A stretch of 64,000 bases of DNA from an uncultured Candidatus Saccharibacteria bacterium (GTDB taxonomy: Bacteria > Patescibacteriota > Saccharimonadia > Saccharimonadales > JBBQAJ01), in NCBI GenBank assembly GCA_964597925.1, contig CAZQZT010000002.1, positions 103,038 through 167,037 on the forward strand, read 5' to 3'. Position 1 is the stretch's first letter; each line of letters starts with the position of its first letter. Below are positions 40,071 to 43,000 of the stretch, piece after piece. Below the pieces are notes generated by a model. That model had not been told where the DNA came from. It searched no databases and worked only from the letters and a program-made list of their open reading frames with translations. The position numbers were made by a program, and so were the translations under genes.

Positions 40071-43000
40071 GTAAAAAGTCAATGGGACTATTAGTACACT
40101 TCAGCTCCATACGTTGCCGTACTTCCACATTGTGCCTATCAAACTGATCGTCTTTCAGTGTCCTCATAGGGAAATCTAATCTTGGGGTCAGTTTCGCGCT
40201 TAATATGCTTTCAGCGCTTATCGGATCCGCACATAGCTACTGGACAATGCCTTTGGTAAAACAATCCATACACCAGCGGTGCGTTCACCCCGGTCCTCTC
40301 GTACTAGGGGCAAATTCCCTCAAATTTCCTTGCGTCCACAGCGGATATAAACCGAACTGTCTCACGACGTTCTGAACCCAGCTCGCGTACCTCTTTAACC
40401 GGCGAACAGCCGGACCCTTGGAAGGTGCTCCCCCTCCAGGATGAGATGAGCCGACATCGAGGTGCCAAACAGCGCCGTCTATGTGAACTATTGGGCGCTA
40501 TAAGCCTGTTATCCCCGGGGTAACTTTTATCCGTTTGCGTCGTCGATCCCACTTTCATATAACCGAAGTTAAAATACGACGGATCACTAGCTCCTACTTT
40601 CGTATCTGATTGGATTGTAATCCTCACAGTCAAGCTGGCTTATGCGCTTGCACTATCGATTCGATTTCCATCCGAACCTAGCCAACCTTTGAACGCCTCC
40701 GCTACTCTTTAGGAGGCAACCGCCCCAGTTAAACTACCCACCAGACACTGTTCCTCAACCGGTACATGTGTCCAACTAAGCCATTTCTCATCCCTGCGTA
40801 AGGGAAAAGAGAGGCGTTAGCCACACATAGCGGTTGAGGTTAGAACACAAGAACAACAAGGGTGGTATTTCACATTGTGACTCCATCAGAGCTAGCGCCC
40901 TGACTTCAAAGTCTCCCACCTATGCTACACATGTTGCACCTATGCCCAATGTCAAGCTGTAGTAAAGCTCCACGGGGTCTTTTCGTCCTGCTGCGGACAG
41001 ACGGCATCTTTACCGTCAATGCACTTTCACCGAGCTCTTCGTTGAGACAGTGCCCAAATCATTACACCATTCGTGCGGGTCAGAACTTACCTGACAAGGA
41101 ATTTCGCTACCTTAGGACGGTTATAGTTACCGCCGCCGTTCACCGGGGCTTCAGTTCGCACCGTGAAGCACTCCCCTTAACCTTCCGGCACCGGGCAGGT
41201 GTCAGCCCCTATACATCCACTTTCGTGTTAGCAGAGACCTGTGTTTTTGGTAAACAGTTGCTTGGGCTCCTTAGCTGCGGCCCCCTCACTCTATCAACCA
41301 CGATAGATGAGTATGTAGGGTCAGCTTTCTTCTTGATTTGTACATCTCGAATCTCAAAGTTGCTCGTTTATACTGATCCAGATAAGAAGTTAATAACTTA
41401 TCTGAACTACAGTTGTTTTCGTAAGAAGAAAACTGGCAATTCTCATCTGTGATTAACACAGTGAGGGGGCAGACCTTATCCCGAAGTTACGGTCGCTATA
41501 TTGCCGAGTTCCTTAACGAAGAATCACTCGTACGCCTTGGTCTACTCGACCTGAGCACCTGTGTCGGTTTGCGGTACGGATAGTTAAATACATAAGTCCA
41601 GTTGCTTTTCTAGTCAGCACCTTCACAGAAATCCGACCATACGGTCGTTTTATTCGTACCCTTTTCTGATACTTAAACGGATATAACCATGAATCCGCTC
41701 CTGCTAATATGCCGCGCACACTGAACAATACAAAACTAGTACGGGAATATTAACCCGTTGTCCATCGCCTACGCTACGCGCCTCGGCTTAGGACCGACTA
41801 ACCCTGGGACGATTATCGTGGCCCAGGAAACCTTGCTCTTTCGGCGGATAGGATTCTCACCTATCTTATGGTTACTCATTCCAACATTCTCACTTGATAG
41901 CGCTCCACCAGACCTCGCAGTCCGACTTCAAAGCCCTATCAACGCTCCTCTACCACGCATACATAAGTACACATCCATAGCTTCGGTAATACACTTGAGC
42001 CCCGTTACATTTTCCGCGCAAGATCTCTTGACGAGTGAGCTGTTACGCACTCTTTAAATGAATGGCTGCTTCTAAGCCAACATCCTCGTTGTTTAAGAAA
42101 TCTCACCTCGTTTCCCACTGAGTGTATATTTAGGGACCTTAGCTGATGGTCTGGGCTGTTTCCCTTTTGAGCGCCGAGCTTAGCCCCGACGTTCTAACTG
42201 CTGTAGTTCCACATAACGTATTCGTAGTTTGACAAGGGTGAGTACCCGTAAGGGCCCCAGTCCGAATCAGAGCTCTACCCCATTATGCTACCGTACAACG
42301 CTAGCCCTAAAGCTATTTCGAGGAGAACCAGCTATCTCCAAGTTCGATTGGCATTTCACCGCTATCCACAGGTCATCCGGGCGTGTTGCAACGCGCTACG
42401 GTACGGCCCTCCACGCAGTTTTACCTGCGCTTCAGCCTGCCCATGGATAGATCACTTGGTTTCGGGTCTAATTGTTACGACTGATTCGGCCTATTCAGCC
42501 TCGCTTTCACTGCGCCTCCGTCAAATGACTTAGGCTTGCCGTAACAATTAACTCGTTGGATCGTTCTACAAAAAGCACCCCGTCACCCCGAAGGGCTCCG
42601 AGTCCTTGTACGCACACAATTTCAGGTTCTATTTCACTCCCCTTCCGGGGTTCTTTTAACCTTTCCCTCACGGTACTAGTTCACTATCGATCGCAAGATA
42701 TATTTAGCCTTGGGACGTGGTCGTCCCAGATTCAGTCAGGGTTTCACGTGTCCCGACCTACTCGACACTATAAATGATAAAGTTTGCTTCGCTTGACATA
42801 CCGGGCTTTCACCGTCTATGGCCAGCCTTTCCAGGCTGTTCTGCTCGCAAAACAAATTTCTGACTTTATGCAGGCTGGTGTTAGCGCCTGCTTCCAACCC
42901 CAATCTCTCCCTCGCAGAAGACCTCGGGACTGGTTATTTATAGGTCACAACCCTCTAAAAATATTCGTCTAACAACTTATTTGCCAAGTAATAAATTACC

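Follow-up and report, generated by a model that had tools for sequence, protein, structure and literature searches.

The 23S rRNA gene in a 64,000-nucleotide (nt) stretch of DNA from an uncultured Candidatus Saccharibacteria bacterium (contig CAZQZT010000002.1 of assembly GCA_964597925.1, positions 103,038 to 167,037; here called the window) carries a large insert in helix 63 (H63), the helix that bears the expansion segment ES27L in eukaryotes. This insert is a lineage-conserved, noncoding, structured expansion of the 23S rRNA, lying within the 23S transcription unit and vertically maintained in its clade. Its fate in the mature 50S subunit is judged here from sequence comparison, and the reading that we favor, with middling confidence, is that it would be retained as a bacterial expansion segment, exposed to solvent where eukaryotes bear ES27L.

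The stretch 41150-41620 was aligned by cmscan with the bacterial large-subunit (LSU) covariance model RF02541. In this alignment, 169 inserted bases (41291-41459, minus strand) stand where the model loop has 6, and they form the loop of the helix that lies 3' of H62 (GUAACUUCGGGAUAAGG, GUAACUUCGGGAnAAGG) and 5' of the CCGCAG...ACUGUUUACCAAAAACACAG (CCGCAG...ACUGUUUAnnAAAAACACAG) strand, with posterior probabilities near 1 on both sides and flanks that align undisturbed. The helix that carries the insert is H63, and a published table maps an H63 insertion in Escherichia coli to ES27(L) (PMC2441807). The original prediction, made from the letters of the window, had proposed this site, and the alignment did not return a placement outside H63, the outcome that it had named as contrary. 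It had also described a 9-bp closing stem formed by CCCCCUCAC (41469-41461) and GUGAGGGGG (41289-41281) on the minus (rRNA) strand, enclosing 171 nt; we recovered the same stem and the same enclosed length, and RF02541 lengthens the stem to 11 bp (G41470..U41460 with A41290..C41280).

The insert exceeds the model by 169 nt and E. coli by ∼146 nt. The distance from the anchor CUUCGGGAnAAGG to the anchor ACUGUUUA is 215 nt in the window compared to 69 nt in E. coli, whose helix of ∼45 nt is shorter, as had been expected. The description of the insert as AT-rich also holds, with a GC content of 0.351 compared to 0.491 for the rest of the 23S gene. The predicted minimum free energy (MFE) of the insert is -76.7 kcal/mol compared to -43.7 ± 4.6 kcal/mol for 200 dinucleotide shuffles (z = -7.15), none of which folded as well.

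For the clade of the window, we assembled 62 distinct H63 sequences, made MAFFT alignments of 11 (A1) and 25 (A2) sequences, and folded them with RNAalifold. Covariation was scored on A2, a sequence-only MAFFT alignment, with partners slid by 1-3 columns and 500 column shuffles as controls. Across the full structure, pairing is found in 92% of cells in A2 compared to 46-54% in the slid controls, and double changes are found in 17 pairs; none of the 500 column shuffles reached the observed values. Together, the MAFFT alignments and the RNAalifold folds show a plan shared across this clade of the candidate phyla radiation (CPR).

The best-supported fold is a long rod with a branched apical domain and not a set of four independent hairpins (Table 1). 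The basal stem, P1, has 11 bp and is 97% paired in A2, and its pair 7-246 shows compensatory change: 17 sequences have GC there and 8 have CG. In the MFE fold of the window, P1 is followed by a G-G mismatch, a 10-bp rod extension with covariation at pairs 21-232, 23-230, and 18-235, a 3-nt bulge, and a 7-bp upper rod, giving a rod of ∼28 bp. The upper rod lies in a stretch that aligns poorly and has no formal covariation count; by eye, GUGAG/CUCAC in one relative (L026) matches AUGAG/CUCAU in the window. In single-sequence MFE folds, the outer helix has at least 20 bp in 61 of the 62 clade relatives (median, 24.5 bp), and in other Saccharibacteria clades it has 19-26 bp.

The apical domain of ∼100 nt is branched and comprises helix P3a, the P3b arm with its conserved loop, and a purine-rich junction motif. 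P3a (GCCAGUUUUCUUU/AAAGAAAGCUGAC) is 96.6% paired, with 7 of 14 pairs invariant across the 25 sequences of A2; covarying versions occur in divergent members of the clade (L182, L150, and L127), and 60 of the 62 sequences can form 8 or more contiguous bp. Seven of the eight pairs of the P3b apical helix covary in A2. As for the junction motif, UUGAGA is present in 36 of the 62 clade sequences.

At least four local hairpins had been described in the original prediction. Its CAGAUAAG/CUUAUCUG hairpin is the best supported of these, being the covarying apical helix of P3b, while CUGUG/CACAG and GUUUUC/GAAAAC can form locally, in competition with longer helices over long range to which the MFE and covariation give preference. 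Four local hairpins are one of two readings because the strands also pair over long range, and for these two hairpins the local reading is the weaker one. The pairing of GUUUUC with the local GAAAAC can form in 61 of the 62 sequences; the competing distal P3a pairing, possible in 60, is longer and covaries. The two strands of the rod can likewise fold locally, as CUGUG..CACAG on the 5' strand and CUAUC GUGGUU GAUAG on the 3' strand, in the manner of a cruciform. Cruciform covariation is seen at hairpin pair 228-237 (UA in 17 sequences, CG in 5), and rod covariation is seen at pair 21-232 (CG in 12, AU in 5, GC in 1) and pair 23-230 (CG in 17, AU in 2, UG in 2, GC in 1). Because a palindromic duplex yields both patterns automatically, the two models are not independent and covariation cannot separate them; predicted thermodynamics favor the rod. 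A four-way junction, in which a central arm stands between two hairpins on the basal stem, was considered but not upheld as the preferred fold, the rod pairing being equally or better supported. Either/or pairings are conserved at two levels, 41423-41437 with 41415-41420, and 41447-41461, and may represent intermediates of folding or serve as a switch.

A scan of GTDB species representatives for the H62 sequence of the window, GACCGTAACTTCGGGATAAGGTC, gave at least 119 loci. Among the matches listed, nearly all were from Candidatus Saccharibacteria/Saccharimonadia or other Patescibacteria, and the distance from H62 to ACUGUUUA was sharply bimodal, either 38-49 nt or 148-422 nt, and three loci were intermediate; the short class is a 7-bp hairpin, typically GCCnnCAGCAAUGnnGGC, and the long class is mostly Saccharibacteria. 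When Joint Genome Institute (JGI) metagenome contigs were scanned with H62 and the 5' strand of the clade basal stem, CTTCGGGATAAGGTCTGCCCCSTCAC, 98 contigs were found, and every one that was readable through H63 carried an expansion, of 123-462 nt, and none a short H63. Over 1.2 kb of flanking 23S sequence, the closest relatives share only 77-90% identity with the window, which makes this a deep clade and not a set of strains. In a crude neighbor-joining tree of the 23S flanks, the window falls among Saccharibacteria with mostly enlarged H63 and a few short-H63 lineages interspersed. The H63 expansion is thus a near phylum-wide, structurally conserved feature of variable size that is found in most of the Saccharibacteria sampled, with the lineage-wide presence of an expansion segment; a few Saccharibacteria lineages lost it or never had it. 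Cultured Saccharibacteria also have an enlarged H63, as in L080 (CP128407.1) and L121.

Five of the Saccharibacteria with a minimal H63 (L007, L057, L098, L029, and L006) have nearly the same 7-bp hairpin, GCCnnCAGCAAUGnnGGC, which is also found in Parcubacteria. Either repeated gain of the expansion or its repeated loss, with reversion to one common hairpin, would account for this pattern. Two contigs (L195 and L203) end 12-14 nt into H63; that these ends are RNA fragment ends was considered and rejected, as assembly graphs break at hypervariable stretches.

Judged from these sequences, the core of the expansion is conserved and its periphery is not. Relatives add whole branches of up to ∼150 nt between the rod and P3a (L177 and L148), and some have no P3b. 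A recurrent module of ∼110 nt (...GGGAAAAAGAGCAGCC...GAUGAGAAAAACCGnAAGGUUUUGUCUCAU) lies between P3a and the 3' rod strand in L129, L171, L128, L153, and L209, and with it the H63 total reaches 462 nt. In length-matched pairs, the rate of change of the expansion is lower than that of the 300-nt stretch upstream of the 23S gene and higher than that of the 23S core, with values for core, expansion segment, and internal transcribed spacer (ITS) of 0.965, 0.914, and 0.66 in one pair (L131-L143) and 0.957, 0.911, and 0.75 in another (L152-L181). The contigs L190 and L191, with 99.9% identical flanks and an identical ITS, differ in H63 by a 37-nt indel and many substitutions; possible causes are recombination, a chimeric assembly, and hypervariability at the strain level.

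When the H63 sequences of other Saccharibacteria clades were searched with an nhmmer profile of the clade, nothing was detected beyond sequences that share its basal stem, so that homology across clades rests on architecture and a short motif rather than on significant alignment. These other clades share the rod-then-branched plan, and the block ACUGAGAUAGA (junction block UGAGAUAG) lies at the corresponding place in 25 of their 63 unique H63 expansions; L013 and L089 (GUAUAAAAUAUCGAGUAAUUUGAGAUAGAGC) bridge this block to the GUAUAAACGAG..UUGAGAU of the window. Within the clade, a largely invariant P3a and several invariant unpaired motifs are kept by relatives as divergent in their flanks as described above. 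These patterns suggest that the interior of the expansion is old and constrained, and the junction block in sister clades would mean that the constraint reaches parts of the interior for which a simply discarded element has no need.

The insert is transcribed within the 23S precursor, and its two ends are predicted to pair into the irregular ∼28-bp rod (11 + 10 + 7 bp), which prolongs H63 outward from the ribosome surface and bears the ∼100-nt branched apical domain. If the insert is retained, the rod would act as a spacer, and the conserved apical motifs may provide a docking surface for a protein or another rRNA element. We favor retention because the expansion is fixed across a deep clade, because its interior is under sequence-level constraint that includes unpaired motifs, because its rate of change is intermediate between spacer and core, and because the site tolerates insertion in E. 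coli, which remains viable, and bears ES27L in eukaryotes (PMC2441807). As in an expansion segment, the insertion is in a surface helix, the core fold is intact, and the secondary structure is conserved, and its fixation in the clade contrasts with the strain- or operon-level patchiness of classical intervening sequences (IVSs). A search of the literature on Saccharibacteria or Patescibacteria ribosome structures found nothing relevant.

Several observations weigh against retention. A rod of at least 20 bp in nearly all relatives is what RNase III needs, and rnc is kept by CPR genomes (PMC12641178). The periphery is hypervariable, with a range of 100-462 nt within one clade and near-identical strains that differ by a 37-nt indel. 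The Saccharibacteria with a minimal 7-bp H63, a few of them nested among expanded lineages in the crude tree, indicate that the expansion is dispensable, and the GC content of the insert (35%) is below the rRNA and genome averages and more spacer-like. According to Tsurumaki et al. (2024), CPR bacteria may also hold RNase III-type IVSs among their short insertions, a remark that there concerns two classical IVS sites and not H63 (PMC11270868).

Much of this would fit an RNase III-type IVS, in which the rod, ∼22-28 bp long, would be cut in the precursor and the apical domain discarded, leaving the 23S rRNA in two pieces of ∼1.83 kb and 1.21 kb held together by the remaining basal stem and the tertiary structure of the ribosome. 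We consider this fate a serious possibility, although on balance a doubtful one. In its favor, the long end-to-end stem is kept by covariation and runs for 28 bp in the window with one mismatch and one bulge, the insert is AT-rich and placed at the tip of a surface hairpin, as for IVSs, and its interior varies greatly in size, as under rapid turnover, with some lineages of the phylum having no expansion. The nuclease is retained in CPR bacteria (PMC12641178), IVSs occur commonly in parasites that have reduced genomes and one rRNA operon, the authors of the survey named above suggest this type for CPR bacteria (PMC11270868), and chloroplast ribosomes function with a break in H63 (PMC5694952). 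In terms of patchiness, the expansion is fixed within the clade and absent from scattered Saccharibacteria, L190 and L191 differ strongly inside it, and the rRNA operon is single. On the other side, the expansion is present in every readable member of the clade and is not sporadic, and its near-invariant interior helices and unpaired motifs persist across deep divergence, with one motif shared with a sister clade; such a conserved interior argues against excision, since discarded RNA has no obvious need of it. No IVS-type open reading frame (ORF) is encoded. H63 is also outside the classical IVS sites, which are H9, H25, and H45, and a full-text literature search found no paper connecting an IVS with helix 63.

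It is improbable, in our view, that an excised apical domain (∼120-170 nt) persists as a functional small RNA or that the alternative pairings form a switch in 50S folding or assembly. The conserved interior motifs would suit either role, as would the conserved choice between local hairpin and long-range helix at two levels; however, these alternatives arise automatically from a palindromic duplex and a U/A-rich composition, and no Rfam family was matched. We know of no bacterial rRNA insertion that acts as a released small RNA or as a switch.

A self-splicing or otherwise religated intron, as most CPR rRNA insertions are, is very hard to reconcile with the data, be it of group I, of group II, or a degenerate derivative that has no ORF. 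Introns are frequent in CPR 23S genes, where 45% of the 23S insertions were classed as group I introns in the same survey (PMC11270868). When the insert was scanned by itself, Rfam gave no match even at E ≤ 10, no intron was matched in the scan of the whole window, 169 nt is short for a group I core, and the site is the hairpin loop of a variable surface helix and not a conserved functional site. Moreover, 64 of 66 Saccharibacteria rRNA insertions are described in that survey as having no intron or homing-endonuclease features (PMC11270868). The original prediction had held that the insert is not a homing-endonuclease intron, which agrees with the Rfam result and with the lack of a conserved ORF. 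Its statement that the rRNA strand has no ORF fails mechanically, as a 57-codon GTG ORF (41286-41459, minus strand) spans the insert, though this frame is not conserved: in only 7 of the 62 relatives does a frame stay open across 80% or more of H63, and the ORF is for this reason almost certainly spurious. An antisense ORF of 176 amino acids over H63 returned no protein record on look-up. No second copy of the insert was found within the 64-kb window, so that it is not a repeat there, and viral contigs scanned with the H62-H63 junction pattern gave 0 matches.

Metagenomic rRNA operons are prone to chimeric assembly, and L190 and L191 differ only inside H63, but an origin of the insert as an assembly artefact or chimeric join, or of the 23S gene as a pseudogene copy, is scarcely credible here. 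More than 100 independent contigs show the architecture, among them the complete chromosomes OY970327.1 and CP128407.1, the junctions are structurally coherent with compensatory changes on both, and over its full length the 23S gene reaches 2577 bits with the LSU model.

Starting from the retained expansion segment, we also put forward a more speculative combined reading, which we think unlikely as a whole: the otherwise-reduced ribosomes of Saccharibacteria may keep a large, modular, fast-evolving H63 segment with an apical docking site and a pairing switch. The docking site would consist of P3a, the UUnUUAACUU loop, and the CGAG...UGAGA junction, with a lineage-specific protein or an rRNA contact as partner, and the alternative pairings could be an assembly or conformational switch. 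Such a segment would amount to an independent bacterial reinvention of the eukaryote-style expansion segment built by accretion.

Table 1. Coordinates of the H63 expansion, its parts, and the rRNA operon in the window
Feature	Position	Strand	Description
Whole helix 63	41280..41471	(-)	192 nt (E. coli H63, ∼45 nt); cmscan RF02541, anchor distance
P1 basal stem, 5' strand	41460..41470	(-)	GCCCCCUCACU; pairs with 41280-41290; cmscan model helix
P1 basal stem, 3' strand	41280..41290	(-)	AGUGAGGGGGC; cmscan and A2 pairing
Rod extension, 5' strand	41449..41458	(-)	UGUGUUAAUCAC; pairs with 41292-41301 past G-G mismatch; MFE, RNAalifold
Rod extension, 3' strand	41292..41301	(-)	GUGGUUGAUA; MFE, RNAalifold, covariation
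Upper rod, 5' strand	41442..41448	(-)	AGAUGAG; pairs with CUCAUCU 41305-41311, 3-nt bulge 41302-41304; MFE
P3a, 5' strand	41423..41437	(-)	GCCAGUUUUCUUCUU; pairs with 41320-41334; near-invariant in clade
P3a, 3' strand	41320..41334	(-)	AAGAAGAAAGCUGAC; A2 pairing
P3b arm	41372..41413	(-)	Basal ACUG/CAGU, apical CAGAUAAG/CUUAUCUG
P3b loop, conserved	41387-41396	(-)	UUAUUAACUU, 10 nt; within loop motif AAGUUnUUAACUUCUU conserved in A2
Junction motif, purine-rich	41352..41371	(-)	AUAAACGAGCAACUUUGAGA (GUAUAAACGAG-N6-UUGAGA; CGAG...UUGAGA); conserved columns in A1 and A2
Small variable hairpin	41335..41346	(-)	GAU GUACAA AUC; MFE fold only, weak support; length-variable in relatives
16S rRNA	45983-47533	(-)	rRNA operon
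tRNA-Ala	45508-45584	(-)	rRNA operon; tRNA-Ile also in operon
23S rRNA	40070-43295	(-)	3226 nt; RF02541, 2577 bits, model positions 1-2925 (full length)
5S rRNA	39736-39850	(-)	rRNA operon

The window holds one rRNA operon, and its Rfam matches over 64 kb are the rRNAs, two tRNAs, and RNase P only. The nearest 23S genes are from Candidatus Saccharibacteria/Saccharimonadia metagenome-assembled genomes, which bears out the CPR host that had been proposed. An ORF of 580 amino acids for a subtilase (Peptidase_S8, E = 2e-17) lies at 43659-45401 on the minus strand, between tRNA-Ala and the start of the 23S gene (43295); its strand and position place a protein gene inside the 16S-tRNA-tRNA-23S-5S operon. 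Elsewhere in the window we observed a class A RNase P RNA (61700-62044, plus strand, 266 bits), a short IF-2 (585 amino acids; 33963-35720, minus strand), and a four-domain S1 (369 amino acids; 35765-36874, minus strand), all in keeping with a reduced CPR genome. A neighboring DUF308 protein, used as a route to the 23S genes of relatives, occurs in SRR8670872 and SRR14240541 and led only to short Logan contigs broken at the rRNA operon.

Four tip insertions are present in the 23S gene of the window, the H63 expansion and three others. Two adjoin each other in domain I (∼42852-43003, minus strand), with 46 nt near Rfam model position ∼282 and 74 nt near ∼312, each with stem-loops of its own. 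The third has 66 nt in the loop of H79 (∼40769-40831, minus strand), the helix after the L1 stalk and the site of eukaryotic ES31L. An anchor-based comparison of how the insertions in domain I, H63, and H79 occur together was workable for H63 and H79 only: within the clade, the H79 insertion ranges from absent to ∼140 extra nt, while the H63 expansion is never missing. Deletions are found in this 23S gene as well, at E. coli positions ∼1473 and ∼2792.

Four points appear to be novel: the assignment of the insert to H63, the conserved architecture of rod and branched domain with its motifs, the modular growth, and the contrast with the loss of H63 that is typical of CPR bacteria. If retained, the H63 element would be among the largest and most variable bacterial expansion segments known, at the ES27L site and in organisms cited for their shrunken ribosomes; accretion-type rRNA growth would become testable in culturable bacteria such as oral Saccharibacteria, and lineage-specific partners of the ribosome would be indicated. 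If excised, H63 would join the IVS sites and Saccharibacteria would generally have a split 23S rRNA, which would bear on RNA-integrity metrics, rRNA depletion, and transcriptomics in a clinically relevant phylum. Whichever fate applies, the element is a phylum-specific, clade-informative 23S marker, and it accounts for the length of Saccharibacteria 23S genes, 3.0-3.5 kb, the length window that one study used to call them complete (PMC11670941).

Among known systems, the closest are the short insertions surveyed by Tsurumaki et al. (2024). That paper reports that 35 of 35 Saccharibacteria 23S genes contain insertions of 100 bp or more, and it leaves the 64 intron-free rRNA insertions mentioned above, which are at most 250 bp long, uncharacterized (PMC11270868). 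The H63 insert shares with them the phylum, the gene, an excess of at least 100 nt over E. coli, a length of at most 250 nt, and the lack of a group I/II signature and of a homing-endonuclease ORF. The difference lies in the treatment, as the accessible text handles the insertions as length differences and gives no helix, structure, conservation, or fate (PMC11270868). By every testable criterion, the H63 insert belongs to this class of short insertions.

With bacterial IVSs, the H63 element has in common its place at the tip of a surface hairpin, a long end stem, an AT-rich and size-variable sequence, and a reduced-genome host with one rRNA operon. The IVSs of Salmonella, Campylobacter, Leptospira, Coxiella, and others are excised by RNase III without religation. 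They are sporadic and thought to be horizontally transferred, whereas the H63 element is fixed in its clade, has a conserved interior, and occupies another site.

ES27L, in H63 of the 25S/28S rRNA, sits on the same helix and shows a similar rod-like, multibranched architecture with modular growth of branches, and the 100-460 nt range of the bacterial element overlaps that of lower eukaryotes. The two have no sequence homology, however, and the bacterial element arose independently within one phylum. In yeast, ES27L has a factor-recruiting role (PMC7102955); for the H63 element, both such a role and retention in the ribosome are putative.

The H54a "handle" of actinobacteria and mycobacteria is likewise lineage-wide, vertically inherited, of ∼100 nt or more, and built as a surface helix with conserved structure. 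It is nearly constant in length and is seen in ribosome maps. The H63 expansion differs from it in helix and phylum, is highly variable in length, and is known here from sequence alone. The "hidden break" of chloroplast 23S rRNA resembles our case in that H63 is a site of tolerated processing or breakage after assembly, but plastid H63 is truncated or lost, the break needs the helicase RH39 binding at H62, and no inserted sequence is involved (PMC5694952). Finally, CPR 23S rRNAs usually have no H63 ("23Gap2"; Tsurumaki et al., 2022, PMC9297842), and the short-H63 class found among our matches fits this pattern. The genome of the window and most of the Saccharibacteria sampled show the opposite, with an H63 that is 2 to 10 times as long as that of E. 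coli.

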